From assembly GCA_964373055.1 (NCBI GenBank), contig CAYJTM010000001.1:28688-92687 (forward strand): a DNA stretch of 64,000 nt, given 5' to 3'. The stretch comes from an uncultured Planctomycetia bacterium (GTDB taxonomy: Bacteria; Omnitrophota; Gorgyraeia; 1-14-0-20-64-10). Both the position numbers and the translations under genes were made by a program. Below, in pieces: positions 3,451-25,059 of the stretch; position 1 is the stretch's first letter; each line of letters starts with the position of its first letter. Under the pieces are notes generated by a model. The model did no database searches. It was not told the DNA's origin and worked only from the letters and a program-made list of their open reading frames with translations.

Positions 3451-3479
3451 CGCACCGACTCCTGCCGGTAGGCCTTCCA
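3447..3479. repeat. 33-bp exact direct repeat copy B; spans stop of cytidylyltransferase gene / start of deacetylase gene
   Basis: Identical to 1673-1705; here it encodes the C-terminus ...WKAYRQESVR* of the 3447..4211 gene and the ATG of 2479..3450. Confidence 0.85.
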
Positions 3480-9151: not shown

Positions 9152-11481
9152 GGAATCACCCTGAATAAAAGCACAAGGAGTAAGAGAAAGCTGGCAACGG
9201 ACCCGGTCGTCAGCCGCCTGAGCCAAACAGATTCCTTCGCCGTAAAAACAACGGTGGAAGTGCCCGGCGGCAGTTCAACCACCCAGCGCAGGCCGGAGGG
9301 CTGCAGGACAAGTGGAGATGCGTGTCCATTCGCATCCATCGCCCGAGCGTCCATCCTTCTTAAATCCAGGTGGACCGAGAGCTTCCCGCCTTTTTGTCGG
9401 GGGAGTGCGATGGCGACTCCATAGGGTGCGTGTTGGAGCGGCAGCGGCACTTCCGGTTCATCCAGAAAGTGGGCGACCGGTTTGGCGCTCGGATTCTCGA
9501 ACACCGCCCCGTACTCACCCTCTGCCACGCGGACAAACTTCTGGGGGTGGAGCCGCTGCAGATCGAAGTTGCTTAACCAGTACCGGACACCGTAGTCGTC
9601 GAAGCAGCCCGCCTCAGGACGGACAATCACGTCGCGTCGAGTGAGCATCTGCGTTTCTCTGCTGTCCAGGCGTTTCAGGAACGGGTTTCCCTCCCTCCGA
9701 AGCTCACGATGAACGGGCCCATAGAAATGCAAGTACGACAGCACAAAAGCCAGGCCCTGCCGCATCCACGGACCGTTTAGACGGATGGAGTACAAAACCC
9801 GATTCTGATACTCGCTCGACGCAGTCCAGTAGCCCTTCCAATCTCCTTCTGCGAGCAGCATCTCCGAGGCGCAGAGGACCCCTGCCCGGTAGGTGTAGTC
9901 TGGGATGCGCTCTTGGAGGAACCGAATCTCTCGCGGATGGAACAACGTCGCGTCCAATTCCGAATGCCTTGTGTACAATCCCCATCCATACCCGATACCG
10001 AGCGCCGGTGGCACGATCGCCACGAACAAGGCGATGACCCGAGCTCTCCCTTTCGCGTTCTTGGATCGAAAATAGCCCAGAAGCCCCAGCGCAATCCCTG
10101 CGCAGAAGAGGAGGGTGCCTCGGAAAAAACGAGGAATCTCTGTTCCAGACCCCCCTAGCCCAAGTCGGAAGACAACGTCGGTGAGTGCCTGTTCACCTAC
10201 CATCCACAACGCGATCCCTCCAAGGAGTGCCACCCCCAGGATCAGCCCATAGAGACGGTGCAGCGTCCGCAGCCCTCTCGGGTTCACATTCGTCAGGAGT
10301 GCCTCCATCCCCCCCGCGACCACAAAACCGCTCAGCATTGGGAAGGCAAGCGGCAGCCAGAACGAGAGCGGCCGGAACAGGGGTGAAGGAACCAAGACCG
10401 ATTCTACCGCGAGGAAGAAGATGCAGCACAGCGCAACCCCACGGCCAAGGATCCGAAAGGCGCTCCGCCGCGACTGCCAGAGCGCGAGAAAGCAGGGCGC
10501 GAAGAGGAACGATCCAAAAAACCAGGGGGCCGGAGGAGACAGCCTGCTGATTCCAAGTTTTGCCCAGAGGACAAAAGTCACGCTGGGGACTGGGAAGAGA
10601 AGCCCCAAGAGCTGCGTCGAGCGCGAAAGGTCGATCCCCCACCTTAATGGCGCAACTGCCTCCCGAACCGCTAACCCAGAGCCCACGGTGTAGAGGAGCG
10701 GCCCGAGGATCGGCATCCAGCCGAGAAGCGATCGGGGCCAAACGATCAGGAGCAGCGGCAACACGGAGCCCCAAGCATCCCTCTGCGCAGAGGTGCGTGG
10801 CGGCGCATCCTCTAGCGCCGGCCGCCGGCGGAAGAAAGCCATGAGACCCACTGCCCCTAGAAGATAGGCCTGCGAGGGAATGAGGGAGTGCGATTGAGAC
10901 ACGTACGGCTGAAGTACGTTGGCAAGGATGCACAGGATCAGGTGCCGGCGCTGCCTCGTTGTTAGAAAGAGCGCGTATTCACCGACGGACACGACCAGAA
11001 GAAGCAGGGCGGCCGTGGGATGAATCGCCGCTGTCCACATCGGCCAGGATGCCGCGAAGAAGGCTACCGTGGCCCCCGTCAGGGCGGCCGCCGCAGAGGT
11101 TTGCAGCACGCTGCGGCTATACGCGTAGAGGGTCAGGAAGACCAAGCTGTGCACCCCAACAATGAGCGCTCCCCATCCGGTTTGGTTTGAACCCAACACG
11201 ATGCTGATCCATCGGATGAGATGAAGAGGGTTGTAAACCACGTCATCGCACCACAGCCGCGCGTTCACCGAAAGGTCAAAATAATTGAAAAACCGTCCCG
11301 CCGCTTGGTTGTCGCCGAGCAAGGTGAACATGTGGGCCGCCGGATCGAGAGTCGTGCCGGTCAGGACGCTTCCCGAAGAGAGGAGGATGGGCCCATAGAA
11401 CACAAGCAGGCACAGCGCCAGCACGGCGAAAGGCAACACGCGACTTTTCTCGGTACTGGGAGCCAACACGGGGTCAGGCAT
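9148..11481 (-). CDS. YfhO-family polytopic membrane glycosyltransferase (GT-C-like), paralog 2
   Basis: 777 aa; clear protein- and DNA-level homology to 6860..9151 (tandem duplication). Confidence 0.78.
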   Translation of the reverse strand: MPDPVLAPSTEKSRVLPFAVLALCLLVFYGPILLSSGSVLTGTTLDPAAHMFTLLGDNQAAGRFFNYFDLSVNARLWCDDVVYNPLHLIRWISIVLGSNQTGWGALIVGVHSLVFLTLYAYSRSVLQTSAAAALTGATVAFFAASWPMWTAAIHPTAALLLLVVSVGEYALFLTTRQRRHLILCILANVLQPYVSQSHSLIPSQAYLLGAVGLMAFFRRRPALEDAPPRTSAQRDAWGSVLPLLLIVWPRSLLGWMPILGPLLYTVGSGLAVREAVAPLRWGIDLSRSTQLLGLLFPVPSVTFVLWAKLGISRLSPPAPWFFGSFLFAPCFLALWQSRRSAFRILGRGVALCCIFFLAVESVLVPSPLFRPLSFWLPLAFPMLSGFVVAGGMEALLTNVNPRGLRTLHRLYGLILGVALLGGIALWMVGEQALTDVVFRLGLGGSGTEIPRFFRGTLLFCAGIALGLLGYFRSKNAKGRARVIALFVAIVPPALGIGYGWGLYTRHSELDATLFHPREIRFLQERIPDYTYRAGVLCASEMLLAEGDWKGYWTASSEYQNRVLYSIRLNGPWMRQGLAFVLSYLHFYGPVHRELRREGNPFLKRLDSRETQMLTRRDVIVRPEAGCFDDYGVRYWLSNFDLQRLHPQKFVRVAEGEYGAVFENPSAKPVAHFLDEPEVPLPLQHAPYGVAIALPRQKGGKLSVHLDLRRMDARAMDANGHASPLVLQPSGLRWVVELPPGTSTVVFTAKESVWLRRLTTGSVASFLLLLVLLFRVIP

Positions 11482-12478
11482 GGGGACGGTAATAGATCGG
11501 CGCGCACCAGTGATTCTTAGAAACCCAGTCCGTATTCGGGAAGTCCCCTTCCCTCTTGAGGATCCGGTGGCAGGGCTGGTCGTACACCTTTCCGGTGGAG
11601 GGCTCCGCCGGCTCGAAGGTGATGAACTTGTAGTAGCCGGAGGTCATGCCCTCCGGCAGCGTCAGTCGGCGCGGGAACCGGGGATCCAGCACCCGCCGCG
11701 CGTAATCGTTCTTCCAGGCAACAATCTCCGGCAGCCGCTGGGTCTGCACACAGCCGATCGCGGCGGCGAACTCGCTCATTCGGAAGTTCATGCCCTCGAC
11801 GTCGTAGGAGTTTTTGCCGTAGTTGCGGTGCTTCCGGGCGAAGGCCTCCAGCTCCTTATGCCGGGTGACCAGCATCCCCCCTTCCCCGGTGGAGACGGTC
11901 TTGGTGGCGTAGAAGGAATAGATGCCGGCATCGCCCCAGCTGCCCGGTTTCCGGCCGTTCCATTCCGCGCCGTGCGCGTGCGCGCAGTCTTCCAACAGCC
12001 AGATCCCGTTCTTCCGGCAGTAGTCGGCGATCAGTTCCACTTCGAAAGCGATGTGCCCGCCGATGTGAACCAGCCAGGCCGCCTTCGGTTTAAAGCGCTC
12101 CACCTTGCGGATGAAGTCCTCGTAGGAGAGGCAGAGATCGTTTCGGTTGCAGTCCACGAACTCCACCCGTCCGCCCGCCTTCAGGACGGAGAGCGGAGTG
12201 GCCATGAAGGTGTTCGAAGGGCAAAGGACCGTCTCGCCCCGGACGCCGATGAACTCGAGAGCCGCCATTGCCGCCCCCGCCCAGCTGGAAGTGGCCACAG
12301 CCGGCAGGCCGTTCCACCGGGACCAGAGCTGCTCGAACCGCTCGGTGAAGGGTCCTTCGCTCCACCGCTCGGAGGCGACGATCGAATCCCACATCTCGTG
12401 CAGCCGGGGAAGATCCCGCCGGTCGAAACCGATCGAGAAGGCCTGGGACTGAGCCTGATCAGGAACGGAGAGCGGCAT
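11474..12478 (-). CDS. DegT/DnrJ/EryC1/StrS family aminotransferase
   Basis: Start at internal Met MPLSVPDQ (12478); ...SSWAGAAMAALEFIGV..., SFYATKTVSTGEGG (PLP lysine). The 105 aa upstream in the ORF track overlap the epimerase gene and are discarded. Confidence 0.78.
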   Translation of the reverse strand: MPLSVPDQAQSQAFSIGFDRRDLPRLHEMWDSIVASERWSEGPFTERFEQLWSRWNGLPAVATSSWAGAAMAALEFIGVRGETVLCPSNTFMATPLSVLKAGGRVEFVDCNRNDLCLSYEDFIRKVERFKPKAAWLVHIGGHIAFEVELIADYCRKNGIWLLEDCAHAHGAEWNGRKPGSWGDAGIYSFYATKTVSTGEGGMLVTRHKELEAFARKHRNYGKNSYDVEGMNFRMSEFAAAIGCVQTQRLPEIVAWKNDYARRVLDPRFPRRLTLPEGMTSGYYKFITFEPAEPSTGKVYDQPCHRILKREGDFPNTDWVSKNHWCAPIYYRPHA

Positions 12479-13403
12479 CCACCTTGCTCCAGCTCTGCTG
12501 CTGTTGCCGCTGCAGGGCCTGAGTCCAGTCCAGGTAGCGCCGCAGGCCCTCTTCAAAGGGGGTCGAGGCGCGCCAGCCCAGCTCCTGCTGGGCGCGAAGG
12601 GAGCAGGCCACCTTTCCCGAGAAGTCCCCCGGCCGGCCCGGCGTGTGCACGATCTCTCCCCGGCCGACGACCCGCTGGACCGCCTGCGCGATCTGAAGGA
12701 TCGAGACCCGGTCTTGGCCGTCCAGGTTGTAGACCCGGTTGGCGGCCGCGGGCTTAAGGGCCAGCACGATCCCCTCGGCCAGGTCCTCGACATAGATGAA
12801 CTGGCGGAATTGCTGCCCGTCGCCCGCCACGGTGATCGGTTCCCCCTTGAGGGCCTTCGACACGAACAGCGGGACGACGGCGCCGCTGCGGGCCCGGGGC
12901 CCGTAGGGGATCCCGAAGCGGAGGATGGTGTACGGCAGATGGTAGAGAGCCCCGTAGGAACGGCAATAGAACTCCGAAGCGATCTTGGTGGCGGTGTATA
13001 GGTGGGAGGGAGGCGGTATCGGTGTCTCCTCGTCCACCTCCGTTTCCGGGCAATCGCTGTAGACCCAGGTGGTGCTTCCGTAGATCACGCGCGGGGCGGA
13101 GCCGCGGCGGGCCGCCTCCAGGACGCAGATTGTTCCGCGCGTGTTCACCGTCTCGGCATAGGAAGGGTCCTCAAAAACCTCCTTCACGTCGGCGACGGCC
13201 GCCAGGTGGATGACGGCGTGGATCCCCGTCATCGCCAGGCGGAGCGCCTCGATGTCCAGGACCGAACCGATGAAATGCTCCACCCCCGCGTGGTAAGGCG
13301 AGCGCTGCTGGTCGAAGATGCACGGCTCCACGCCGTGCGCGGAAAGACGATCCACCACGTGCGAGCCGATGAATCCCGAACCGCCGGTGACGAGGACTCT
13401 CAT
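12459..13403 (-). CDS. NAD-dependent epimerase/dehydratase (SDR-type nucleotide-sugar enzyme)
   Basis: Start MRVLVTGGSGFIGSHV (13403, ATGA overlap with upstream gene); YxxxK present (YTATKIASE). Confidence 0.85.
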   Translation of the reverse strand: MRVLVTGGSGFIGSHVVDRLSAHGVEPCIFDQQRSPYHAGVEHFIGSVLDIEALRLAMTGIHAVIHLAAVADVKEVFEDPSYAETVNTRGTICVLEAARRGSAPRVIYGSTTWVYSDCPETEVDEETPIPPPSHLYTATKIASEFYCRSYGALYHLPYTILRFGIPYGPRARSGAVVPLFVSKALKGEPITVAGDGQQFRQFIYVEDLAEGIVLALKPAAANRVYNLDGQDRVSILQIAQAVQRVVGRGEIVHTPGRPGDFSGKVACSLRAQQELGWRASTPFEEGLRRYLDWTQALQRQQQQSWSKVDAALRS

Positions 13404-14374
13404 CTTTCTCCTTGTTGGTTCAGGTGACGTTGCAGAAGCCCTAAGGCCAACCGGGCGGCTTGGGTCTGAGACTCGACCGTGGCACCGGCAATGTGGGGGG
13501 TAATCACGATCTGGCCCGAACGGTGAAAGCGAAGCAGCGGCGACCGGTCTTGGGTTCCCAGGGTTTCCCCCTCCAGAACGTCCAGGCCGACCCGAAGGTC
13601 GGGCCGCCGATCGAGAACGGTTGCCAGGTCCCTTTCCACCAGGACCTCGCCACGGGAGGTGTTCACCAGGCACGCCCCGGCTTTAAGCCGGCCCAACAAC
13701 GCGGCGGTGACCATTCCGGTTGTTTCCCGGCTCAAGGAACAGCAAATGCAGACCGCGTCGGATCGGCTGAACAGATCTTCCAAGGAAACGGCCGGAGCGG
13801 CGGCGGAAACAACGAGCGGATCGTGGTAAACAACCTGGGCGTCGAAGGCCGCGCAGTACCGGGCGACCCGCCGTCCGATCCGGCCGAAACCGACCAGGCC
13901 GACCTGTTTCCCCTGCAGCTCATACCCCCGCAGCAGCTCCTCGCGGTCCCGCCAGCGGCCTTCCGAGACTTCTCGGATCGCCGTGTCCAGGCGCCGCAGC
14001 GTGTTGAGCAACAGCAGGAACGTGAACTCCGCGCTGGCCGAGATCTCGTTCAACCCCTCCCGGTCATCCAGCAGGCTGTAGACGGCGACGCCCCGTTCCC
14101 GGCAGGCCTTGAGATCCAAGTGATTGCTTCCGGTGGAGGGAGTCACGATCACCGACAGGGCCGGGAGATCCCGAAGCACGGCGCCGTCCACGTGGAATTG
14201 CTGGCCCGGATTGACCACCCAAGCCGTGAGCCCGGGGTCCGGCAGGAGCTCTTCCCGCTTCCAGATCTCACGGAAGGCGGTCGGCATCAGGCGCCGGAAC
14301 TCCCCCTGGAGATCCCCCAGGAAAGAGAACGGCGCGCTAAAAAGGCAGGAAGCGGTCTGGGTTTTAATCATCAT
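13400..14374 (-). CDS. D-isomer-specific 2-hydroxyacid dehydrogenase family protein
   Basis: Start MMIKTQ (14374, ATGA overlap); GLVGFGRIGRRVA NAD-binding motif; catalytic His region ITPHIAG. Confidence 0.78.
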   Translation of the reverse strand: MMIKTQTASCLFSAPFSFLGDLQGEFRRLMPTAFREIWKREELLPDPGLTAWVVNPGQQFHVDGAVLRDLPALSVIVTPSTGSNHLDLKACRERGVAVYSLLDDREGLNEISASAEFTFLLLLNTLRRLDTAIREVSEGRWRDREELLRGYELQGKQVGLVGFGRIGRRVARYCAAFDAQVVYHDPLVVSAAAPAVSLEDLFSRSDAVCICCSLSRETTGMVTAALLGRLKAGACLVNTSRGEVLVERDLATVLDRRPDLRVGLDVLEGETLGTQDRSPLLRFHRSGQIVITPHIAGATVESQTQAARLALGLLQRHLNQQGER

Positions 14375-15069
14375 CGGACCACCTCCCTGACTCGGTCCGA
14401 AAGCCTCCGGAACTCCTCCGGGGTCGCGCTGAGCGCGTGGTCCCGGATCACGGTCGAGCTCTTGTCCATCGTGAAATGCTTTTCCAGGTAGCGGGCGCCC
14501 CGGTCGATCGCCAGGAAGCAGGCGGAGAGATCGAGGCAGTGGTCGCTGTAGCCGTAGTAGCCCGATTCTTCGAACCGCTCCGGAAACCCCGCAAGGTCCG
14601 ACCCGAAGGCCGGATATTTGGAGCGGCAATAGATGTAGAAAAGGGTTTTTCCGTCCGGCGGCCCGAACGGGAACCGGGGTTCATCCCACATCCCCAGGGA
14701 GACGAAGGTCGGCTTCCCCTCCGCCAGGATCTTGCGGACGAGCTCCGGGCGATCCACCACGGTGCGGGAGGCCACCTTGTAGCGCGGAAGCTCCAATTCC
14801 CGCGCCCACTCCAGCGCCTCCTCCGTGAAGAGTGAGGCCATCAGCTCGATACCGGTTTCCACGCACCAGTCTTTCAGCCGGCGTACCCGCCCGAGGTCCA
14901 TCGCGTTGATCTCCCCCGGCCCGGATCTCCAGCCGAACTGGAACTTGGCGGCGTCCGCCCCGGCGAGCTTCGCCTGGCGGATCATCTCCCGGGCGCGATC
15001 CCAATCTCCGTCGTGGTTCAGCCCGATCTCAGCAACAAGCAGCATGGAGGGGCTCCAGGCATTTTTCAA
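14371..15069 (-). CDS. NeuB-like nonulosonic/ulosonic acid synthase, short form (232 aa, no SAF domain)
   Basis: VAEIGLNHDGD, AKFQ, YKVAS, GYSDHCLD, EKHFTMDK...RDHALSATPEE; second NeuB paralog in window. The start may be the internal Met at 15045. Confidence 0.72.
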   Translation of the reverse strand: MKNAWSPSMLLVAEIGLNHDGDWDRAREMIRQAKLAGADAAKFQFGWRSGPGEINAMDLGRVRRLKDWCVETGIELMASLFTEEALEWARELELPRYKVASRTVVDRPELVRKILAEGKPTFVSLGMWDEPRFPFGPPDGKTLFYIYCRSKYPAFGSDLAGFPERFEESGYYGYSDHCLDLSACFLAIDRGARYLEKHFTMDKSSTVIRDHALSATPEEFRRLSDRVREVVR

Positions 15070-15949
15070 AAGGGGCGGTGAACTCCACCATGTTCCGCCT
15101 CAGGTGAAACGGGGAGGTCTCATCGGTGTTGAAGCCGAAGAGGGCCGTGCAGGAAAGGGAGAAGCCGGCCGACCGCAGCAGGGCGACCGTCTCCTCATCG
15201 AAATGCCCCTCCTGCCCCTCCGGGTAGGAGAAAAGATCTACCGGCTCTCCCAGCTGGCGTTCGATGGCCTGCCGGCTGCCTTGGATCTGGGACTCTTTCC
15301 CTTCCCGGCTCAGATGGGTGAGGATCGCATGGTCCACCGTATGCGCGCCGAACTCGCAGAGACCGGAGCGCCGCATCTGCCGGACCTGATCCCAGGAAAG
15401 GGTGCGGTAATCGGGATAATCGTATCGGGGGTCCACACCCAGCCGCTGCTGCATCTGCGCCAGAACGGGCTCGATCAGACCCGGGGTCTGCTTCAAGGCG
15501 GCCTTGATCTGGCACAGCGCCGCCCTGCGGTCGTCCGGTGTCCGAAGGAGAAACCCAAGCTGCAGGGCGGGCAGGAAAAAATCCGCCTGAGCGGTTTCGT
15601 TGAGGAGGTACTCCACCTTGTCCACCCAGAAAACCCTCTCGGTTCCGATGTGGCCGGAGGAGAGAAAGAAGGTGGCCGGGATGCGCAGCCGTTCCAGGAT
15701 GGGAAACGCCACGTTGTAGTTGTTCTCAAACCCGTCGTCGAAGGTCACGGCGACCGAGCTCTCCGGCAGGGCCCGCCGGGAACTCAGGCGGACCAGCTCG
15801 CGCAGAGACAGGACTTGGTATTCCGCCGCAAGCCGCTCCATCTGACGCTTAAATTCCCCCGCGGGGATCTGCTTGCGGGACGAGTTCTCGATCCCGCGGT
15901 GATTCTGCTCCGTGACGCCGTGGTAAAGGAGGATGACGAATCGACTCAT
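15029..15949 (-). CDS. Polysaccharide deacetylase (NodB-like), second copy
   Basis: Start MSRFVILLYHGV (15949, ATGA overlap); VTFDDGFENNY, HTVDH motifs. Confidence 0.8.
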   Translation of the reverse strand: MSRFVILLYHGVTEQNHRGIENSSRKQIPAGEFKRQMERLAAEYQVLSLRELVRLSSRRALPESSVAVTFDDGFENNYNVAFPILERLRIPATFFLSSGHIGTERVFWVDKVEYLLNETAQADFFLPALQLGFLLRTPDDRRAALCQIKAALKQTPGLIEPVLAQMQQRLGVDPRYDYPDYRTLSWDQVRQMRRSGLCEFGAHTVDHAILTHLSREGKESQIQGSRQAIERQLGEPVDLFSYPEGQEGHFDEETVALLRSAGFSLSCTALFGFNTDETSPFHLRRNMVEFTAPFEKCLEPLHAACC

Positions 15950-16653
15950 GGGGCCATCCCATCCAGGTGTCGCTGCAGGCGCCGGCCGGCCAGCCACCGC
16001 TTGAGGGGCCCGATGGCGGAGAGGGTGGTGCCCCGGGTCAGGTCCTGGGGCACGGCGGCAGGGAGATTCCCGAGCTGAAGCTCGCTCAGGATCTGCTCCG
16101 CCATCTCGGCGGCCAGGAGTGTGGTGTGATAACGCAGGTGGTGTGCTCTCATGCCGGACCGCAGCTGCAGCCGGCGCTGGAGGAGCACTGGGCCGGTGTC
16201 CAGCTTCTCCTCGAGGAGGTGGAGGGTCGTCCCGACGTTGCCGAAATCCCGCTGGTACACGGCCCAGAGGTCGGAATCCAGGCCCCGGTAATCGGGCAGG
16301 ATTCCCCGATGGACGTTGAGGCTGAGACGTCCCAGCCGGTAGACCGCCGGGAGGATCCGGCCGGTCCCGAAGGTAACGAGCAGATCCGGTTGGACCCGGC
16401 GGATCAGGGCTTCGCATTCCGGCTGATTCCCGCTGCGGAACCGATGGAGGCCTCCCGGCGCCTCGAACCGCTCCGAAGCGCCGTTGAACGACTGCTGCTC
16501 AAACCGGTCCTGGAGGCGCCCGAAAGGCGAGTGGGCCGGACGCGCCGGGCCTTTTTCCTCCAGCACGACGGTTAACTCCGCGCAGCGGGCGATGCGGCCC
16601 GCGAAGTACCGGTGGTGACGGGTGTCCGTCGTCAGCAGCAGGCAGCGGATCAC
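15946..16653 (-). CDS. Formyltransferase (Fmt/ArnA N-domain-like; probable sugar N-formyltransferase)
   Basis: 235 aa; SLNVHRGILPDYRGLDS matches the formyl_trans_N catalytic His/Asp region. Confidence 0.75.
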   Translation of the reverse strand: MIRCLLLTTDTRHHRYFAGRIARCAELTVVLEEKGPARPAHSPFGRLQDRFEQQSFNGASERFEAPGGLHRFRSGNQPECEALIRRVQPDLLVTFGTGRILPAVYRLGRLSLNVHRGILPDYRGLDSDLWAVYQRDFGNVGTTLHLLEEKLDTGPVLLQRRLQLRSGMRAHHLRYHTTLLAAEMAEQILSELQLGNLPAAVPQDLTRGTTLSAIGPLKRWLAGRRLQRHLDGMAP

Positions 16654-18101
16654 GGGGCCACCTTCTCCGGTGCTCCGGTTCTCGGGACCGGGGTCTGCGC
16701 AGCTGACGCCTGATGTGCCTGCCGCTGCCGCAGCAGGAACTCGATCAGCTGCAGATCGAAGGGGGTTTTGATCTGGAGACTTTCCTCCCGCGTCATCGTG
16801 ATGTGGCCAACCCTGCGGCCGACGAGATCCTGTTCGGTCAGGATGTCCCGCCAGAGGGCCCGGATCGCCCCGTTGCTCTCGTACAGGCCCTCCCGTTCGA
16901 GGCGGATCTGCCGGTGCATCGCCGGGTTGAGCGGCGTCAGCCCGTTCGGGCCGTGCACGAAATGGAGGTCGGTGTCTTCGCAGACGCTCACCACGCTGTC
17001 GGCCTCATACAGGATCAGGGTGTTCACCGCTTCGCGGATGTGCGCGGCGGTGCGCAGAGGCGCGTGCACGCTCAGCAGCACCAGGATGTCCGGCCTGCTC
17101 CCAAGCTTTTGTTCCAGGTGGGTCACCGCGTCCAGCGCCACTTCGGCTTCCGAGGTCCTCTCCCCGGAGAGCCCCGGAGAGCGCAGCATCGCGGAGATCC
17201 CCTGGACGCCCTGGCAGTGCCGCGCCACCTCGGGGTCATCGGTGCTGACCAGGATCTGCTCGAACAGCTCGGCCTGCAGCGCAGCCTCCAGCGTGTAGTC
17301 GATGAGCCGGGCCCCGGAGAGCTCTTTCAGCACGACGTTGGGCAGATGGGCGTAGCTGTTTTTCGCCTGCACGATCGCGGCGATCTTCAAGCCCGCCGTG
17401 CTGTTTCGGCTATCCACCATCGCCTGCTTGATTTGGCGGCGGGCCTCCAACAGACGCTCCTGCTTGCTGGACTGGGAATCGGCATGCTGACGGTAGAAAA
17501 AGAGGGGCGTCGCCACATTGGCGATCTCGTGCTGGGGGAGCAGCTTCAGCCACAACTCGTATCCGTCCTGGGCGCTGTGGCGCTCGTCATAGCCGCCCAG
17601 CTTTTTCAGCACCTCCCTGCGGACCAGCGTGCCGGCCCCGTGAGCGGGCAGGTCCAGGAACTGGGCCTCCTTCCCGATCCGTTTGCGGTGCTCCACGCCG
17701 AGGTAGTTGCCGGCTTCGTCCACGTAGATGTAGTTCGGGTAAACGAGTGCCACCTCCGGATGCCGATCCAAATAAGAGGTCAACACGAGCAGCGCGTTCT
17801 CATCCAGGAAATCGTCGGCGTCCAGCCGCAGGATAGTGTCGCCCCGCGCCGCTTGCAGCGCGGCATTGGCGCCAAACTGCAATCCGCGCGGCGGCGAATG
17901 CCGGATCACCCGGATCCGGTCCGGATGCTCCTTCTGGAAGCCCTCCGCCACCCGCGCCGTCTCATCCTCGGAGCCGTCGTCCACGATGATCAGCTCCCAA
18001 TCCGCGCGGCTCTGGCTCAAGACCGACTCGATGGCCTGCGCGAGATACCGCCCGTAATGGCGGCACGGGATGTAAACCGTCACCTTGGGGATCGAGCTCA
18101 T
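16650..18101 (-). CDS. Bifunctional: N-terminal GT2 glycosyltransferase + C-terminal acylneuraminate (CMP-NeuAc) cytidylyltransferase-like domain
   Basis: Start MSSIPKVTVYIPC (18101, ATGA overlap). N-terminal IIVDDGSEDET...DADD is GT2. C-terminal KIAAIVQAKNSYAHLPNVVLKELSGARLIDYTLEAA...LLSVHAPLR...ESNGAIRAL matches CTP_transf_3. Confidence 0.78.
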   Translation of the reverse strand: MSSIPKVTVYIPCRHYGRYLAQAIESVLSQSRADWELIIVDDGSEDETARVAEGFQKEHPDRIRVIRHSPPRGLQFGANAALQAARGDTILRLDADDFLDENALLVLTSYLDRHPEVALVYPNYIYVDEAGNYLGVEHRKRIGKEAQFLDLPAHGAGTLVRREVLKKLGGYDERHSAQDGYELWLKLLPQHEIANVATPLFFYRQHADSQSSKQERLLEARRQIKQAMVDSRNSTAGLKIAAIVQAKNSYAHLPNVVLKELSGARLIDYTLEAALQAELFEQILVSTDDPEVARHCQGVQGISAMLRSPGLSGERTSEAEVALDAVTHLEQKLGSRPDILVLLSVHAPLRTAAHIREAVNTLILYEADSVVSVCEDTDLHFVHGPNGLTPLNPAMHRQIRLEREGLYESNGAIRALWRDILTEQDLVGRRVGHITMTREESLQIKTPFDLQLIEFLLRQRQAHQASAAQTPVPRTGAPEKVAP

Positions 18102-19192
18102 GGAAGCTCCTTGGCCTTTCCGGTCCGTTGGGATTTGAGCGCCCGCATGAACTCTTCCTCGCTCAGGCCCGTGATCTGAAGGTAGTAATCCAGCTGCCCC
18201 GGCCGCTGGGGATCGAACTTCTTGATCAGCTCGAATCCCTCCTCGCGGGTGAGCAGCCCGGCCCGCACATCCTGGCTGACGTGATCGGTGGCCCGCCCGA
18301 AACCCCGTTTCACGAACTTGGCGTAGTCGTGCACGCCGGCCATCCTGCACTCCACGCTCTTGTACCCCTTGTAGGTCCCCTCGACGTTGTCTTCCCGCCA
18401 GCCGTAAGCGGATTTAAGAAACTCCACTTGCCGCTCGCCGTCCCAGAAGAGGTAGTCGCCGAGAAAGATCCCGCGGACGCCGGCGGCCTGGAGCTCCTCC
18501 GGGGTCGGAAACCGGAACGGGTAGAGGTCCCGGCCCGAGAGCCCCTCCCCCTCCATCCCTTCCACCCCCACCTTCATCGAGACCTTGGGATAGTAGCCCT
18601 CGTCGAACCGGACGGCGTCCTGGTAGCTTGCCTTGTTTCCCGCCTCGGCGACCGATTCCCCCCAGATGATCAAGGGGACGTTGAACTTGACAGCCACCTG
18701 CAGAGGGAAGGAGCCCACGCCCGCGTGGCAATGCCAGCAGGGATCCCCGATCCGGTAGAGGGATTTTTGGGCGATCCGGTTCACCAGGTCGCGGGCCGGG
18801 CTGAACAGCAGGTGGTCCACCCCCATCTTCTCCAGGATGTTCCAGAGATTGTATTCGCCGGTCTCGGTGAACCACCGGTGGCTGAAGGTGCAGGCCAGCG
18901 GCTTCATCCCGTATTGTTTCACCAGCACGTGAAGCTGGAAGGCGCTGTCCTTGCCTCCGCTGATCGGAACCAGGCAGTCGTAGTTGTCTCCGCTGGAGCG
19001 CTTGGCCTCTTCCAGGATCCCGCGCAGCTGCCGTTCTCGTTCGGCCCAATCGATACGCATCTTCTGTTCCGAGCTCTGGCACGCGCGGCAGACCCCCATC
19101 TCATCAAAGAGGGTTCCTTCGGAAGTCTCCGGCATGCAGCAGCGGACGCAGGTGCGCAGGTTCGCGAACAGAGGCCGGCCCGGCGCGCTCAT
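18098..19192 (-). CDS. N-acetyl sugar amidotransferase, PseA/WbuX family (PP-loop ATPase)
   Basis: 364 aa; N-terminal Cys-rich zinc ribbon (CVRCCMPE...CRAC), SGGKDS PP-loop, strong overall similarity to the PseA/WbuX family as recalled. Confidence 0.85.
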   Translation of the reverse strand: MSAPGRPLFANLRTCVRCCMPETSEGTLFDEMGVCRACQSSEQKMRIDWAERERQLRGILEEAKRSSGDNYDCLVPISGGKDSAFQLHVLVKQYGMKPLACTFSHRWFTETGEYNLWNILEKMGVDHLLFSPARDLVNRIAQKSLYRIGDPCWHCHAGVGSFPLQVAVKFNVPLIIWGESVAEAGNKASYQDAVRFDEGYYPKVSMKVGVEGMEGEGLSGRDLYPFRFPTPEELQAAGVRGIFLGDYLFWDGERQVEFLKSAYGWREDNVEGTYKGYKSVECRMAGVHDYAKFVKRGFGRATDHVSQDVRAGLLTREEGFELIKKFDPQRPGQLDYYLQITGLSEEEFMRALKSQRTGKAKELP

Positions 19193-20280
19193 CAGTTCAT
19201 CTTCGCGGCGGCCGCGAGGAACCGGCGCGCTTCCATCTCGGCCCGTTGCACCGCCTCTTCCGGAGGGCCATCCAGGATCGTAAAGGGGTTCTTCTCTTTG
19301 CGGATCGTCTTCAGGATCCGACCGGTGTCACCCGAGCAGGCTTCCACCAAAGACAAGAATCCACGGGCCTTGTCCTCAAACCGGCGCTCGTAGGTCCGGA
19401 GCCGATGGGAGAGGTCAGCCGCGCTGTCCCGGGTCCCGCCGTCGATCGCGTCGAGGAGCTCCGCGCGGGAAAGCGGCCGGGCCGCGCGGGCCAGCGTGTA
19501 GTACGCGCCCGGGATCCCCTCGAGGGGCTCGGAGGTGAACCGGATCGGCTTGAAGCCGAAGCGCAGCAGCGCCAGCTTCAGCGTCCGGTTCGAGAAATAG
19601 CGGTAATGGTTGTGGTTGTAATATTCCAGCGGGGAGCCCCACATCGCGTGGCTGCGGGTGCGCATCAGCAGCAGCCCGCCCTCCTCCAACACGAAGCGGC
19701 AGCGGCGCATCGCGCGGGAGAAATCGTAGACGTGCTCGAACGTGCCGAGGCTGACCGCCAGCGAGAACTCCCCTTTCCGGAACGGCAGGTTCTCGGCGTC
19801 GCCGATCCGCACTGGCAGCCGCAGGCCCCGGCCCGTCTTCACCGAGCCGACGTCCGGGTCCACGCCGGCGCACCGCCAGCCGGCTTTCAGGAACGGGACC
19901 ATCGTGGCGCCCGCCGAGCAGCCGATGTCCAGCATCTTGCCGGCGGAGCTGGCCGCCTTTTCGATGAAGCGAAGGATTTGTTCCCCCCGGTGTGTTTGCC
20001 GCCTCAGGTATTCTGCCGTGGGGGCGGAGCGGCCGGTGGCGACGTGCCGGTAGGTCTTACGGTAATAATCGATGTAGAACCGGCGCTCGTACCGCGGGTT
20101 GATCATCACGAACCCGCAGCGCCCGCAGACCCGCACCGGCAGCGGGCCGTAGACGCCCGGCCCGCCGACGCGGCCCTTGGACTGCAGCAGGCTGAACCGC
20201 CTGCTGTCGCAGATCTCGCAGGGGATCGTCCGCGGACGGTAGCGGCCGTTCATGCCGATGATTTCCAGATATTTTTTCAT
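19192..20280 (-). CDS. Zinc-ribbon SAM-dependent methyltransferase (class I); possible CmoB-analog partner of the adjacent CmoA
   Basis: 362 aa; CEICDSRRF...CGRCGF ribbon, MLDIGCSAGATM motif I, GTFEHV motif. Confidence 0.78.
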   Translation of the reverse strand: MKKYLEIIGMNGRYRPRTIPCEICDSRRFSLLQSKGRVGGPGVYGPLPVRVCGRCGFVMINPRYERRFYIDYYRKTYRHVATGRSAPTAEYLRRQTHRGEQILRFIEKAASSAGKMLDIGCSAGATMVPFLKAGWRCAGVDPDVGSVKTGRGLRLPVRIGDAENLPFRKGEFSLAVSLGTFEHVYDFSRAMRRCRFVLEEGGLLLMRTRSHAMWGSPLEYYNHNHYRYFSNRTLKLALLRFGFKPIRFTSEPLEGIPGAYYTLARAARPLSRAELLDAIDGGTRDSAADLSHRLRTYERRFEDKARGFLSLVEACSGDTGRILKTIRKEKNPFTILDGPPEEAVQRAEMEARRFLAAAAKMN

Positions 20281-21011
20281 GGTTTCAGCGCGATGAACGA
20301 GGCGAAGTTATACCAGCGGAAATACAGCTCCGGCGCGGCAAAACCGTTTCGCTGGAGCAGCTCGGCGTTCTCTTTTACCTTGTACGGGACCAGCACATTC
20401 TCCAGAGCTTCCCTTTTTTGCGCAATCTCCATTTCTGAATAGCCTTTCTTGCGCTTGAACTCGTAGTAGAGGTCGATATACATGCTGTTCAGCGTGGGGT
20501 CTTCCGCGAGCACCTTTTCCGACAGCAGCAGGCAGCCCCGCGGCCGCAAGGCCTGGAAGATGTTCCGGATCAGCGTGTCCCGGTACAGGGGGCGAACGAA
20601 CTGCAGCGTGTAGTTCATGATCACCACGCTGACGGGCCCAAGATCGAATTCCTGGTGGAGGTCCTGCTGGCGCAGGTCGCAGCGTTGAAGCAAGCCCAGC
20701 CGGCCCAGGTTCTCCCGGCTCTTGTCCAGCATCGCCTTCGAAAGGTCGAAGCCCACAATGCGGACCGTGGGGTCCGGAATGCCCTGACAGAGCAGGGCCA
20801 TCGTGGTTCCGGTTGAACAGCCCAGATCGGCCACCCCGCTGCCCGGCTGCGCGAAATTCCGGGCCAGCTCGACCGTCATGCGCTGCGCCTCCCTGTAGAG
20901 CGGCACGCTGCGCTCCAGCATATCGTCGAACACGTTGGCCACCGTCTCGTCGAACTGGAAGCCGGACGCCCTCTGCACCGGGGAATCGAAAATCTTGTCC
21001 CGGCCGCTCAT
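20277..21011 (-). CDS. cmoA: Carboxy-S-adenosyl-L-methionine synthase (CmoA family)
   Basis: 244 aa; N-terminal FQFDETVANVFDDMLERSVPLY and C-terminal KKGYSEMEIAQKREALENV align closely with E. coli CmoA ([20 protein letters not shown] ... ANGYSELEISQKRSMLENV); same length class. Confidence 0.8.
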   Translation of the reverse strand: MSGRDKIFDSPVQRASGFQFDETVANVFDDMLERSVPLYREAQRMTVELARNFAQPGSGVADLGCSTGTTMALLCQGIPDPTVRIVGFDLSKAMLDKSRENLGRLGLLQRCDLRQQDLHQEFDLGPVSVVIMNYTLQFVRPLYRDTLIRNIFQALRPRGCLLLSEKVLAEDPTLNSMYIDLYYEFKRKKGYSEMEIAQKREALENVLVPYKVKENAELLQRNGFAAPELYFRWYNFASFIALKP

Positions 21012-22381
21012 GAACGGCTCTCCGCCATCGCCGGGTCTCTCTGGGCCATTTCCACGGGGCTCCTCTCTTGCAGAAACCCTTCCTGCGTCAGCAGGCGGGC
21101 GAATTGGAGCAGCGGGTAATCCCCGTATTTTCGCCCCACCAGTTGCGCGCCGAACGGGAGCCCGGAGGGAGCGGTGAAAACCGGTATGCTCAGGGCCGGA
21201 ACACCGCAGAAGGTCCAGATCAGGCAGTTGTCCGGCAGGTCCCTTCCCTCGAGGCCGAGCGGGGCCTCTGAGCCGGTGGAGAGCGTAAGCAGCAGGTCTA
21301 CTGCTTTCTCCTCAAACAGGCGATCCAAATCCTGGGTGGCCCTTGCCTGAAAATCCAGGCAGTCCCGGTACTCGGCCGGGCCGACCTTCGCCCCTTCCTC
21401 CAGCATGGAGCGGAACAACCCGCTTAAGGCGTCCGGGGTCCGGTTCTCCGCCTTGAAGTAGTAGGCCAGCATGCGGCAATAGATCCGCTGGTGGACGTCG
21501 TGGATCCTTGCAAAATCGGGCGGCAGGTTCACATCGACAACCGAAACACCCCGCACCGCCGCAAGCCGGCCGACGAACCGCTCGAGCGCTTCTCTCGCGT
21601 AGGGCTTCGCCTGCTCCCACTTGGGCCCCCGCACGAAACCGACCCGCCAGCCGGAGGGGTCCGGCGCCTCAGCCGTGGGATCCACACGCTGCTGGACCAC
21701 TGGGTGGTTGCTCCCTCGAACGCGCGTCCGGTCGAAAATCAGCCGGAGATCGTCGATGTTCCGAGCCAAAAAGGAAACGTGATCCAACGTGTCCGTTGTC
21801 TTGAGCATGCCCGTCCTGGGAAGCAACCCGAAGCTGGGCTTGAAGCCATAGATGCCGCAGTAGCTGGCCGGCCGGATCGTGGAGCCGGCGGTCTGGCTGC
21901 CCAAGGCGAGGGGGACCATTCCCGTGGCGACCGCCACGGCCGAGCCGCTGGAAGAGGTGCCCGGTGAGCGGGCGAGATCGTGGGGGTTCCGTGTGGGCCC
22001 CGGCGCGTGGACCGCGAACTCACTGGTGACCGTCTTGCCCAGCACAATCCCGCCGCTGCGTTTCAACGCGGCCACCACCCGGGCGTCGTTTCCTGGGGTG
22101 AAGCCCTTCCAGAGGGGGCTCCCCATCTCGGTCGGCATCTCGGTTGTGTTGAAGATGTCCTTCACCCCGATTGGGGCTCCCTCCAGTGGGCCGGCGGTTC
22201 CGCCCCGTGCCCTGGAGTGGTCCGCTTCCTCCGCGTGCCGCAACGGGATCTCCGGATTCAGGAAGGCCCAGGCGCGGAGCTGCGGTTCCAGCGAATCGGC
22301 GCGAGATAAACAGGAGCGCGCCCATTCCGCGGAGCGGAGTTTCCCCGCCCGGATCTCCGGAATCGCCCTAGAGGCCGACAT
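21008..22381 (-). CDS. Amidase-signature family amidase (GatA-like)
   Basis: GTSSSGSAVAVATG (GGSSGG-type motif), Ser-cisSer-Lys context. Start likely MSASRAIPEIRAGKL (22381); the ORF track starts at 22426. Confidence 0.78.
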   Translation of the reverse strand: MSASRAIPEIRAGKLRSAEWARSCLSRADSLEPQLRAWAFLNPEIPLRHAEEADHSRARGGTAGPLEGAPIGVKDIFNTTEMPTEMGSPLWKGFTPGNDARVVAALKRSGGIVLGKTVTSEFAVHAPGPTRNPHDLARSPGTSSSGSAVAVATGMVPLALGSQTAGSTIRPASYCGIYGFKPSFGLLPRTGMLKTTDTLDHVSFLARNIDDLRLIFDRTRVRGSNHPVVQQRVDPTAEAPDPSGWRVGFVRGPKWEQAKPYAREALERFVGRLAAVRGVSVVDVNLPPDFARIHDVHQRIYCRMLAYYFKAENRTPDALSGLFRSMLEEGAKVGPAEYRDCLDFQARATQDLDRLFEEKAVDLLLTLSTGSEAPLGLEGRDLPDNCLIWTFCGVPALSIPVFTAPSGLPFGAQLVGRKYGDYPLLQFARLLTQEGFLQERSPVEMAQRDPAMAESRS

Positions 22382-22392
22382 CTGCCAGGGGT

Positions 22393-23157
22393 TCACGCGG
22401 CGCACGCCTCTTTCTGCGACATCCATTCCAGCGGAAGCCGACCGGCCGCAGCGGCTTGCATCACCGCGTGAAGATCAAAGTCCGGATCCCACGGATGGCA
22501 GGCCGTGAAGACCTCCCGGACCCCATCGAGGTTGTGAGGGTAATTAACGGCAAACGTCCACTCCGGTTTGTGGAGCTGAGCCCAGGGGCCTTCGGCCGCC
22601 AGGTAGCCGATCGAAAATTCTTCGGGATGTTCCGTGAAATAGCGTGTCGAATGCTCCCGGTCCATCGGATCGGTGGTCCGCGCAGCCACCCGGTCAAGCG
22701 CGTCGGCCGAGTAGACCTGGGCCCGGATCCCAATGGGGAATCGGGGCAGCCCCGCAGGGGCGTGCGGGTATTCCCGGGTCACATTGACGGCATAGTCAAA
22801 ACGGCCGGACTGATAGAGCCCCACCACGGCCTCGATCAGCGCCGAGTGGACCAGCGGGTTGTCGCCCAAGAGCTCCACGATGGCGTCCCCTCCGAAACGT
22901 TTCCATGCCTGATGGACGCGCCCGAGCACATCCTCGGCGGGGCCGCGGTGACAGAGAACGCCCAGGCGCTCTGCCCACAAGCTGAGGGGGGCGTCCTCCG
23001 GGCAGTCCGTCGTGGCCAGGACGATCCGGTCCAGACAGCGCGCCTTGGAAACCCGCTCCAGCATCCGTTCGATCATCGGTTTGCCCAGGATCAGCTGCAT
23101 TGTTTTGCCTGGAAACCGGCTGGAGCCCATCCGCGCCACTAGGATCGCCGTCGTCAT
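22393..23157 (-). CDS. Cytidylyltransferase, SpsF/PseF/NeuA-like (paralog of 3447..4211)
   Basis: Start MTTAILVARMGSSRFPGK (23157, ATGA overlap); 254 aa, same length and signature as 3447..4211. Confidence 0.82.
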   Translation of the reverse strand: MTTAILVARMGSSRFPGKTMQLILGKPMIERMLERVSKARCLDRIVLATTDCPEDAPLSLWAERLGVLCHRGPAEDVLGRVHQAWKRFGGDAIVELLGDNPLVHSALIEAVVGLYQSGRFDYAVNVTREYPHAPAGLPRFPIGIRAQVYSADALDRVAARTTDPMDREHSTRYFTEHPEEFSIGYLAAEGPWAQLHKPEWTFAVNYPHNLDGVREVFTACHPWDPDFDLHAVMQAAAAGRLPLEWMSQKEACAA

Positions 23158-23735
23158 GAGCCGTTTCCGAAGCGCCGCAGGAACTCGTTTTTGAGAACGC
23201 CGTATTCGATCACGTCCAGGTATCGGTTCTGTTTGAACGCCGCTTGGCGCCGGCACCCCTCTTCCCTCATCCCGAGGGAGCGGGCAAGCCGCCTCATCGG
23301 CGCGTTGGTTTCGAAGGTTCCGCAGTAAACCCGGTTCAGATTCAGCGTGAAAAAGGCGTGCCGGAGCAGCAAGGCCGCCGCCTCCTTCGAATACCCCTTA
23401 CCCCAGCAGGACCGGTCGCCGATGAGGATGGCGAACTCCCCGGAACGGGAGACCGGATCGATGCTCTTTAAGGCCACGTTCCCGATGTGCTGCCTGTCGC
23501 TCCGGCGGGCCACGGCCAGGATGAGCTCGCTCGCGTTGGAATGGGCCCGCTCGACGTACCGGAGCGCCTGCTCTCTCGAGTAAGGGAACCGGTGGTGCCC
23601 GTTCCCGGCGCAGACCACCTCATCGTTGAACCACTCCGCGTAGGGGCCGAAGGCGTCCTGGCGGCGGAGGGGCCTTAAAAAAACCTTTTTTCCTTGGAGG
23701 AAAGGAACCCCCTGGGAATGGACAGATTTCATCAT
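23154..23735 (-). CDS. GNAT-family N-acetyltransferase (PseH/RimL-like)
   Basis: Start MMKSVHSQ (23735); acetyl-CoA binding-like segment RQHIGNVAL...GKGYSKEA. The N-terminal 71 aa of the ORF track are discarded. Confidence 0.72.
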   Translation of the reverse strand: MMKSVHSQGVPFLQGKKVFLRPLRRQDAFGPYAEWFNDEVVCAGNGHHRFPYSREQALRYVERAHSNASELILAVARRSDRQHIGNVALKSIDPVSRSGEFAILIGDRSCWGKGYSKEAAALLLRHAFFTLNLNRVYCGTFETNAPMRRLARSLGMREEGCRRQAAFKQNRYLDVIEYGVLKNEFLRRFGNGS

Positions 23736-23763: not shown

Positions 23764-25059
23764 TTACCGGGGAGCGGATTCGAGGAGTGCGGGGGCGTTC
23801 TCGAGGACCTTGTGAAAAGCGGCACTAACCTGGTCCATATGCGTCTGCGTGAGGGGCCAGCGGCAGAACCGCCCGAAGAGGAGCTCCCGCTCAAACAGAG
23901 CTTCCGCGGCGGGACAGAGGCCGCGTGGATAGCGGTAGGGAGCTCCACCCGGCCCGTTCCGGAACGGGAAGCCCTCTTTCCCGATGGCGATCCCCTTCTG
24001 GAAGAGCGGCTCCCAGTAGACGGGTCGGGCGTAGTCGCTCCTCAAGGGGATCCCCTCCGCCTGGACGGCCCGCAGGAACAGCTCACGCGGCAGTCCGCAG
24101 CGCTTCTCGTCGTAGCGCATGGCGTAGAAGTAATAGACGTGCCGGCTGTCCGGGTCGAGCGCCCGCTGAGGCCGCAGGCCGGGCAGCGAGGCCAGCTCTT
24201 TGTCCAGCGAGGCGGCCAGCCGCAGGCGATGCTGCGTCAGCTCTTCCAGCCGGCGCAGTTGCACGGAGGCGATGGCCGCTTCAATTTCGGTCATGCGGGT
24301 GTTTCCGCCGAAGGTGTTCTCCAGGCGCTCCACCCCCAGGGCTTCCACCGCGGTTTCGCCGTGATTCCGGATCAGCCGCAGGCGCAGGGCCAGCTCCTCG
24401 TCCTCCGTCACCATCACCCCGCCCTCCCCGGTCTGGATCGTCTTGTGGACGTTGAGGCTGAACCCCCCGATCCGACCCAGCGTGCCCACCGGCTTGCCCC
24501 GGTACGCCGCCCCCGGGGCCTGCGCGCAGTCCTCGAGGACGGCCAGGCCGTGGCGGCGGGCGACCTCCAGCAGCGGCTCCATCGGGGCGGGATGCCCGAA
24601 CAGGTGGACCACCACCAGGGCCCGTGTCCGCTCGGAGATCCGTTCCTCCACTGAAACGGGGTCGATGCAGAAGGTCTGCGGGTCCACGTCCGCAAAGATC
24701 GGGACCGCCCCGTAGGCCAGCGGGCAGACGGCGGAGGCGGACATGGTCAGCGGCGGGACGATCACTTCATCGCCGGGACCGATTCCCAGCGCTCCGATGG
24801 CGGCGTACAGACCGGAGGTCAGGGAGTTGAAAGCGATCGCGTGGCGCACCCCAAAATGGCCCGCCCACTCCTGTTCCAGCTTGCGCACCCGTGGGCCACC
24901 CAGGAAACCGGGCCCGGGTCCCGCTTGGAATCCGGAGAGGGTCCCCGAATCCAGAACCTCGAGGACGGCCTGCTTCTCCTCCTTCCCGATGGTGGAGGCC
25001 TCGGGCCACCTCTCTCGGCAAACGGGGACGCCTCCCAGGAGGGCTAGCTGTTCAGGCAT
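23764..25059 (-). CDS. DegT/DnrJ/EryC1/StrS family aminotransferase
   Basis: 431 aa; EEKQAVLEVL..., SLNVHKTIQTGEGG PLP-lysine; paralog of the C-terminal half of gene 1. Confidence 0.85.
   Translation of the reverse strand: MPEQLALLGGVPVCRERWPEASTIGKEEKQAVLEVLDSGTLSGFQAGPGPGFLGGPRVRKLEQEWAGHFGVRHAIAFNSLTSGLYAAIGALGIGPGDEVIVPPLTMSASAVCPLAYGAVPIFADVDPQTFCIDPVSVEERISERTRALVVVHLFGHPAPMEPLLEVARRHGLAVLEDCAQAPGAAYRGKPVGTLGRIGGFSLNVHKTIQTGEGGVMVTEDEELALRLRLIRNHGETAVEALGVERLENTFGGNTRMTEIEAAIASVQLRRLEELTQHRLRLAASLDKELASLPGLRPQRALDPDSRHVYYFYAMRYDEKRCGLPRELFLRAVQAEGIPLRSDYARPVYWEPLFQKGIAIGKEGFPFRNGPGGAPYRYPRGLCPAAEALFERELLFGRFCRWPLTQTHMDQVSAAFHKVLENAPALLESAPR

Follow-up and report, generated by a model that had tools for sequence, protein, structure and literature searches.

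Here we describe a gene in a 64,000-nucleotide stretch of DNA (the window) from contig CAYJTM010000001.1 of assembly GCA_964373055.1, an uncultured Planctomycetia bacterium. It encodes a protein, hereafter the fusion, in which a glycosyltransferase family 2 (GT2) domain is followed by a domain resembling NeuA, the cytidine monophosphate (CMP)-sialic acid synthetase. We found that this second domain (the C-domain) keeps the synthetase fold and is conserved, yet has lost the catalytic residues of known synthetases. The gene and its parts, all on the minus strand, are the following:

16650-18101 (-): whole gene, GT2 plus cytidylyltransferase-like fusion, 483 codons; ATG at 18101, TGA stop at 16650-16652
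17472-18089 (-): GT2 (GT-A) glycosyltransferase domain, residues ~5-210
17811-17822 (-): DxD motif D94-A-D-D97 (GAC GCC GAC GAT), aligning to LDSDD of the chondroitin polymerase K4CP
17382-17471 (-): inter-domain linker helix, residues ~211-240; helix 214-232 in the model
16719-17381 (-): NeuA/CMP-sialic-acid-synthetase-like domain with degenerate catalytic residues, residues ~241-461
17331-17369 (-): degenerate P-loop QAKNSYAHLPNVV, residues 245-257, standing in for the canonical PARGGSKGIPRKN
16899-17006 (-): equivalent of the synthetase dimerisation arm, residues ~366-401, ending at R400 (the Arg165 equivalent)
16767-16775 (-): Q443-I-K445 (CAG ATC AAA), where synthetases have the Mg2+-binding D209-I-D211

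The open reading frame (ORF) runs through 16650-18101 with no internal stop or frameshift. An earlier, sequence-only reading of this DNA had proposed one polypeptide with a complete GT2 domain and a full CTP_transf_3 domain, and had set a hidden stop or frameshift near residue ~230 beforehand as the refuting observation. We looked for such an interruption and it is not there, and more than 120 homologues have the same single chain. The motifs quoted in that reading were located at residues 41-48 (DDGSEDET), 94-97 (DADD), 238-257 (KIAAIVQAKNSYAHLPNVV), and 408-416 (ESNGAIRAL). An AAGGAG Shine-Dalgarno sequence lies 6 nt 5' of the ATG, and the ATG shares the letters ATGA with the stop of the WbuX-type amidotransferase gene just before it. 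A longer start at a GTG at 18350 (566 amino acids) was dismissed because it overlaps the WbuX gene and mismatches the N-termini of the homologues, which the ATG at 18101, with its AAGGAG site, fits. The identical 483-residue product is encoded on two independent metagenome contigs (L001 and L002).

At the structural level, an AlphaFold2 monomer model of the fusion, built on 35 homologues, reached a mean predicted local distance difference test score (pLDDT) of 86.9 and a predicted template-modelling score (pTM) of 0.83, which indicates a defined two-domain arrangement. No solved structure in the Foldseek search matched the whole chain (best TMq <= 0.43), and no transmembrane segment was evident in the fusion. 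The GT2 domain matched Glycos_transf_2 (PF00535) over residues 8-168 and profile positions 1-167 of 168, with 104.9 bits against a gathering threshold of 23.3 (E=5.5e-30). Among PDB sequences it aligned to the A2 domain of K4CP and to 6P61 (E~1e-22). Foldseek placed it on 6P61, a Leptospira GT2, with a template-modelling (TM) score of 0.94 and a root-mean-square deviation (rmsd) of 1.8 A, and further matched WrtF, TarP, TarS, and K4CP.

For conservation we used the best 120 of 765 matches from a search of 5.8 billion protein clusters. Within these homologues the DxD motif is kept almost without exception (D94 in 120/120, D96 in 119/120, D97 in 120/120), and there is little or no variation in the nucleotide-binding DDGS 41-44, D41/D42/D46, H154, D179, and YRQH. 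These residues, together with the metal/diphosphate-binding DxD, align to their counterparts in chondroitin polymerase and 6P61. D179, within QDGYELW, is present in 120/120 and, judging from its position alone, may be the catalytic base. Linker-helix residues R221, I224, and K225 are invariant in the homologue alignment (A1). From these residues, the GT2 half looks like a competent, active glycosyltransferase.

The C-domain also matched its Pfam family, CTP_transf_3, with 46.4 bits against a cutoff of 22.6 (E=5.4e-12). The Pfam profile was matched at positions 1-82 of 217 only, while the NeuA fold is there in its whole length, and the earlier description of the sequence is correct. NCBIfam cutoffs were all far above the scores obtained (PseF, 58.7 against an equivalog cutoff of 205.7; KdsB, 22.2 against 155.2). 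Residues 242-461 aligned over their full length to the CMP-Neu5Ac synthetases 6IFD (E=5e-16; 24-248) and 1EYR (E=1.5e-15). Foldseek gave TM scores of 0.80-0.85 to 6IFD/1EYR and of 0.77-0.85 across CMP-Neu5Ac, CMP-Kdn, and CMP-Pse synthetases.

To read the active site, we mapped residues onto the N. meningitidis enzyme (NmCSS) and the V. cholerae synthetase and counted each position in the 120 homologues. Each line gives the NmCSS residue with its contact, the fusion residue, and the counts:

Arg12 (beta-phosphate): K247; K 112, R 7 of 120
Ser15 (P-loop): Y250; Y 111/120
Lys16 (beta-phosphate): A251; variable
Lys21 (alpha/beta-phosphate): V256; I/V/L 118/120
Asn22 (ribose): V257; V 110/120
Arg71 (cytosine): R307; R 120/120
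Gln104 (sugar / Mg2+): S344; S 94, N 20 of 120
Thr106 (sugar): H346; H 107/120
Arg165 (sugar carboxylate): R400; R 111/120
Asn175 (sugar): N410; N 117/120
Tyr179 (glyceryl chain): R414; variable
Asp209 (Mg2+): Q443; Q 93/120, others mostly R/N/M
Asp211 (Mg2+): K445; K/R 117/120

In the C-domain, all beta/gamma-phosphate and Mg2+ contacts are lost, and a Lys/Arg is gained at Asp211, beside the alpha-phosphate. In characterised synthetases, Arg71 provides cytosine selectivity and the P-loop residues hold the phosphates; K16A attenuated the enzyme and K21A abolished activity (PMC6580227). D209A had no measurable activity, D211A lowered kcat 15,000-fold, and R165A was inactive (PMC2901514). The proposal that activation and transfer are performed by one protein is therefore unsupported: the equivalents of K16, K21, N22, D209, and D211 are replaced throughout the family.

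A profile-free search with the C-domain only, against 1.8 billion representatives, located these losses in the family history; 100 relatives (50%-identity cluster representatives) were aligned. The 28 relatives at E <= 1e-30 are mostly fused proteins or their fragments, and standalone NeuA-like relatives of ~230 amino acids start at about E=1e-24. Among the latter, 55 read PARGGSKGIPRKN / LQPTSPLR / RRQD..NGAIY / SxDIDT, with Lys21 in 52/55 and Asp211 in 47/55. Of 23 clearly fused C-domains, none has Lys21 (0/23), none has both Asp (0/23), and 22 retain Arg71 (22/23). This makes the loss an ancient and defining trait of the fused clade. No other N-terminal partner of the degenerate domain was evidenced in this search, the matches of ~300-370 amino acids being apparently truncated GT2 fusions or partnerless.

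Despite these replacements, the C-domain is not decaying. Against a 77%-identical orthologue, the ratio of nonsynonymous to synonymous substitution rates (dN/dS) was 0.119 for the C-domain and 0.126 for the GT2 domain, so it is under purifying selection as strong as that on the GT2 domain. Mean pairwise identity among the 120 homologues is 0.54 for the C-domain and 0.64 for the GT2 domain, and about 27 C-domain positions are invariant, including N248, E375, H383, E402, R403, E404, W417, R418, H433, and S441. The most conserved stretch is the arm equivalent at about residues 366-407, SVYEDxDLHFxHGxxGLEPLNPxMHxxxRLERE in alignment A1. The dimerisation arm was defined in VcCMAS, and in synthetases it completes the active site of the partner subunit (PMC6580227). 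In our monomer model the arm is the least confident part of the C-domain (pLDDT 61-76), as would be expected if it packs against a second subunit.

The best 120 of the 765 homologues are 458-577 amino acids long, with 51-80% identity and at least 93% query coverage, and nearly all have both Pfam domains. Scanning one genome per species, we found 113 encoding loci and kept 80 for locus counts. These 80 loci cover more than 15 phyla, among them Planctomycetota, Omnitrophota, Myxococcota/Bradymonadales, Chloroflexota, Gemmatimonadota, Gamma- and Alphaproteobacteria, Desulfobacterota, Elusimicrobiota, Bacteroidota, Bacillota, Actinomycetota, Acidobacteriota, and Verrucomicrobiota. The closest is from an uncultured Planctomycetia (77% identity), and cultured carriers include Lujinxingia vulgaris and L. 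sediminis. The architecture had been called unusual; in frequency it is not, since it defines a large conserved family. In RefSeq and UniRef its members are named "glycosyltransferase family 2 protein" (e.g., WP_230467563.1 from the cultured L. vulgaris), and we found no publication on the GT2/NeuA-like architecture or on a characterised member in the accessible literature.

This distribution also bears on the idea that two genes were joined by a sequencing or assembly error, or fused recently and meaninglessly at this one locus. That idea has practically no chance of being right and we consider it excluded: the ORF is identical on independent contigs, the same architecture recurs in more than 120 full-length homologues and at the 80 loci, the linker helix is conserved, and both halves are under purifying selection.

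At the level of genomic context, 70 of the 80 loci gave a called fusion ORF, and 60 of these 70 also contain NeuB. NeuB is usually its immediate neighbour (49 NeuB ORFs at <=2 kb across the 80 loci), and 41 of the 80 contain an SpsF-like cytidylyltransferase. The orders fusion-NeuB-SpsF, SpsF-fusion-NeuB, and SpsF-NeuB-x-fusion are recurrent, with short or overlapping intergenic gaps. We further considered the 43 well-flanked loci, in which the fusion has 5 kb or more on either side, and counted any ORF of a cytidylyltransferase family within 10 kb. A standalone cytidylyltransferase is encoded in 40/43, mostly with the canonical AR..S.R.PGK loop. The SpsF-like proteins of the window and of loci L003-L082 have the KdsB-type motifs AR..S.RLPGK, GD.PL, and AVD, with the Asp of AVD changed to Asn in 17/44, one of them being the window copy at 22393-23256. 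Legionaminic acid transfer in B. subtilis requires SpsF and its synthesis does not, a requirement that fits SpsF-type enzymes being the activators (PMC7439481).

A distinct context is found in Bradymonadales/Myxococcota (loci L011 and L013-L017, cultured Lujinxingia included). It is a compact four-gene module with a ~470-residue polytopic membrane protein (no Pfam match), the fusion, a short SAF-less NeuB, and an SpsF-like protein, bounded by unrelated housekeeping genes (prfC, catalase-peroxidase, and amine oxidase). No 2,4-diamino-hexose precursor genes were seen near this module.

The window itself is nearly all one minus-strand array of glycan genes. The neighbours of the fusion, listed in the direction of transcription, are:

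22393-23256 (-): standalone SpsF-like cytidylyltransferase with canonical P-loop VARMGSSRFPGK; likely start Met34, at about 23157
21008-22426 (-): amidase
20277-21011 (-): CmoA-like protein, NCBIfam CmoA equivalog 242 bits against a cutoff of 193
19192-20280 (-): methyltransferase (Zn-ribbon)
18098-19192 (-): WbuX-type N-acetyl-sugar amidotransferase, upstream and translationally overlapping; TIGR03573 E=3.8e-103, 345 bits against 203
15946-16653 (-): formyltransferase-like gene, downstream, overlapping the fusion
15029-15949 (-): polysaccharide deacetylase
14371-15069 (-): short SAF-less NeuB-type synthase of the operon that holds the fusion, 224-232 amino acids (224 on L001), Pfam NeuB E=4e-31
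13400-14629 (-): 2-hydroxyacid dehydrogenase
12459-13673 (-): epimerase/dehydratase
11474-12793 (-): DegT aminotransferase

SAF-less NeuB proteins are typical of environmental bacteria (PMC8208679). The window also contains a second module at 3447-7142 (-), in the order GT2-NeuB-unknown-SpsF, and a more distant cytidylyltransferase:

6162-7142 (-): GT2-only paralogue without a cytidylyltransferase-like domain, 31% identical to the GT2 domain of the fusion, linker helix included
5329-6165 (-): NeuB of the second module
4208-5332 (-): 374-residue protein of the second module, no family match
3447-4211 (-): second standalone SpsF-like cytidylyltransferase, with QARTGSSRLPGK, GDSPL, and EVD
48117-48884 (-): KdsB-like cytidylyltransferase, with IIPARMASTRFPGKPL and NVQGDE; full-length CTP_transf_3 match (E=6.6e-38)

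Altogether the window has three standalone cytidylyltransferases, or four cytidylyltransferase-fold sequences with the C-domain. The 374-residue protein was considered as a split-off cytidylyltransferase-like domain and ruled out (hhalign probability 0.3%).

Other genes of the window deserve mention on their own. CmoA is the carboxy-S-adenosylmethionine synthase of tRNA modification; here a CmoA-like gene lies between the amidase and the Zn-ribbon methyltransferase inside a sugar-modification operon, a position that may hint at sugar carboxymethylation. At 36666-38423 (-), a phosphoenolpyruvate (PEP) phosphomutase is fused to a MobA-like nucleotidyltransferase domain, which suggests that this glycan region also produces a phosphonate decoration. 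The ORF at 33003-36050 (-) encodes 1015 amino acids with two GT4 (Glycos_transf_1-type) domains and then a DUF218 domain. Within the glycan operon, 30062-31096 (-) encodes a pyruvate-kinase barrel-only protein of 344 amino acids; genes for an asparagine-synthase-like amidotransferase and for a sulfotransferase-like protein adjoin it. Finally, three large ORFs of the operon at 6860-9226, 9148-11481, and 25052-27040 (-) encode proteins of 788, 777, and 662 amino acids without Pfam or NCBIfam match; by tblastn, the 662-residue one has homologues in 5 related loci and the other two in none.

Regarding known systems, the C-domain resembles NeuA/CSS (1EYR, 6IFD) and PseF in its whole fold, the arm, the STDD and PLR motifs, and the kept equivalents of Arg71, Arg165, and Asn175. 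It differs in that their P-loop GxSK...K-N and D-x-D Mg2+ site are replaced; compared to NeuA/CSS, Gln104 has become Ser and Thr106 His, Tyr179 is variable, and the domain always stands behind a GT2. SpsA-type GT2s (6P61, the A2 domain of K4CP, and B. subtilis SpsA/EpsE/TuaG) share the GT-A fold, DDGS, DxD, and the C-terminal YRxH region with the fusion, whose GT2 domain is 27-28% identical to 6P61 at the TM score given above; however, they are single-domain or paired with another GT-A, and none has a NeuA-like domain. The B. subtilis sps genes encode together the same three protein types as here (SpsA, a GT2; SpsE, a NeuB; and SpsF), but there the GT2 is separate and lacks the cytidylyltransferase-like domain, whereas here it carries a degenerate NeuA-like one. 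Although SpsA is a GT2 with a DxD, it was shown not to be the B. subtilis enzyme that transfers legionaminic acid (PMC7439481).

Fusions and degenerate domains of comparable kinds exist elsewhere. CgtA-NeuA (Cj1143) of C. jejuni NCTC 11168 is a fusion with both activities and HP0326 of H. pylori is a PseF-PseG fusion, although our literature search gave no supporting paper for either. Like the protein described here, they have a NeuA/PseF-type and a glycosyltransferase-fold domain in one chain of a nonulosonate pathway. In contrast, their cytidylyltransferase is canonical, its partner is not a GT2, and they are strain- or species-specific and not spread over many phyla. The pyrophosphorylase-like domains of eIF2B epsilon and gamma are a catalytically inactive nucleotidyltransferase fold retained under selection; their pathway and partners are different, and only the fold class is shared with the C-domain.

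Taken together, the reading we favour, and to which we give about an even chance, is an active GT2 for a nonulosonate glycan joined to a non-catalytic NeuA-derived domain that binds CMP-nonulosonate, dimerises, or both. The protein would be soluble and probably dimeric, a glycosyltransferase devoted to a glycan that contains nonulosonate. Its GT2 domain would be the catalytic part, most likely performing metal-dependent sugar transfer from a nucleoside diphosphate (NDP)-sugar. The C-domain descends from a NeuA-type CMP-nonulosonate synthetase and would no longer make a CMP-sugar, because the triphosphate-binding lysines and the Mg2+-binding aspartates are lost. It keeps the arginines that read cytosine and carboxylate. 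This pattern of losses, retentions, and gains is expected of a site that binds the product, CMP-nonulosonate, and does not make it, and a module for substrate recognition and dimerisation is therefore favoured. Most likely the C-domain dimerises the protein and binds either CMP-nonulosonate or an acceptor through its nonulosonate moiety, and in this way the GT2 reaction would be coupled to the nonulosonate pathway. Activation of the sugar would be done by the separate SpsF-like cytidylyltransferases encoded nearby.

Several observations weigh against this reading. In 3/43 well-flanked loci no standalone cytidylyltransferase was found within 10 kb, and the role of SpsF-type enzymes as CMP-nonulosonate synthetases is known from genetics only. 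The retention of K247 at the Arg12 position leaves some room for an unconventional nucleotidyl transfer, and with the ribose-binding Asn22 lost, even cytidine binding is not assured. Moreover, many of the invariant C-domain residues are polar (N248, E375, H383, E402, R403, E404, W417, R418, and H433), and His346 occupies the position of a metal-binding Asp in KdsB-type enzymes. Polar residues conserved to this degree are more usual at catalytic sites than in modules that only bind, and they leave room for a different, acquired catalytic activity.

If catalysis persisted in its original form, the protein would be a true bifunctional enzyme, whose C-domain makes CMP-nonulosonate from cytidine triphosphate (CTP) and whose GT2 transfers it immediately. 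The complete NeuA-like fold, a CTP_transf_3 score above the Pfam gathering threshold, the location in NeuB clusters, K247, and the conserved R307 and R400 all agree with it. We nevertheless regard it as highly improbable: single substitutions at several of the positions replaced family-wide kill or cripple known enzymes, the NCBIfam scores are far below the equivalog cutoffs, and canonical standalone cytidylyltransferases are nearly always co-encoded. In addition, enzymes known to use CMP-sugars are not of the DxD-bearing, metal-dependent GT2 kind, as was likewise argued for SpsA (PMC7439481). Another reading is a dual transferase, in which the NeuA-derived domain is a new kind of metal-independent, CMP-nonulosonate-dependent glycosyltransferase and the GT2 adds a second sugar, building a hexose-nonulosonate unit. 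Such a protein would resemble two-domain polymerases, for instance chondroitin or heparosan synthase or the meningococcal W/Y capsule polymerases. The cytosine and carboxylate arginines remain, the residues that handle triphosphate and Mg2+ are gone, D211 has given way to K/R close to the alpha-phosphate, and the invariant H383, H433, E375, E402, or E404 could be a general base, as in sialyltransferases. In the Bradymonadales module the fusion is also the sole cytoplasmic transferase candidate beside synthase and activator. In Foldseek, PmHS2 and K4CP aligned through their two GT-A domains to the two halves of the fusion over ~430-530 columns, but with an rmsd of 17-20 A and TMq <= 0.43, so the fold type is common and the arrangement is not; these polymerases have a DxD and an NDP-sugar site in both domains, the fusion a DxD in its N-terminal domain only. 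The GT2-only paralogue at 6162-7142 sits in an equivalent GT2-NeuB-x-SpsF module, so at least one module of this kind can do without the cytidylyltransferase-like domain. We also know of no precedent for glycosyl transfer by a nucleotidyltransferase-type active site, and we consider the dual transferase unlikely.

A rather unlikely possibility, too, is modification at the nucleotide level, where the C-domain would hold CMP-nonulosonate as the acceptor and the GT2 would glycosylate it, giving a CMP-activated disaccharide for a downstream transferase. The residue pattern that suggests CMP-nonulosonate binding is compatible with this, as are the tight operon linkage to NeuB and cytidylyltransferase and not to variable glycosyltransferases, and the confident, fixed inter-domain geometry of the model. 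However, the scheme is purely inferential, and no CMP-disaccharide donor is known to us.

Both folds and both families were already known, and the architecture is in databases under a generic name. What is new, as far as the accessible literature goes, is a large and ancient family tied to NeuB and a cytidylyltransferase, with a NeuA-like half that is conserved yet catalytically degenerate. Recognising the domain as degenerate corrects the tempting misannotation "bifunctional synthetase/transferase". Environmental bacteria widely carry nonulosonic acids (sialic, pseudaminic, and legionaminic acids and their relatives) on their surfaces, and only in a few pathogens is it known which enzymes incorporate them into glycans. 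There is a small chance that the NeuA-derived domain is a new metal-independent transferase using CMP-nonulosonate, or another new CMP-nonulosonate enzyme on the nucleotidyltransferase fold; if so, the family would be a missing nonulosonate transferase or a dual-activity synthase of many environmental bacteria. The fusion family is a candidate new substrate-recognition or transferase module in the sialic-acid-like glycobiology of bacteria.

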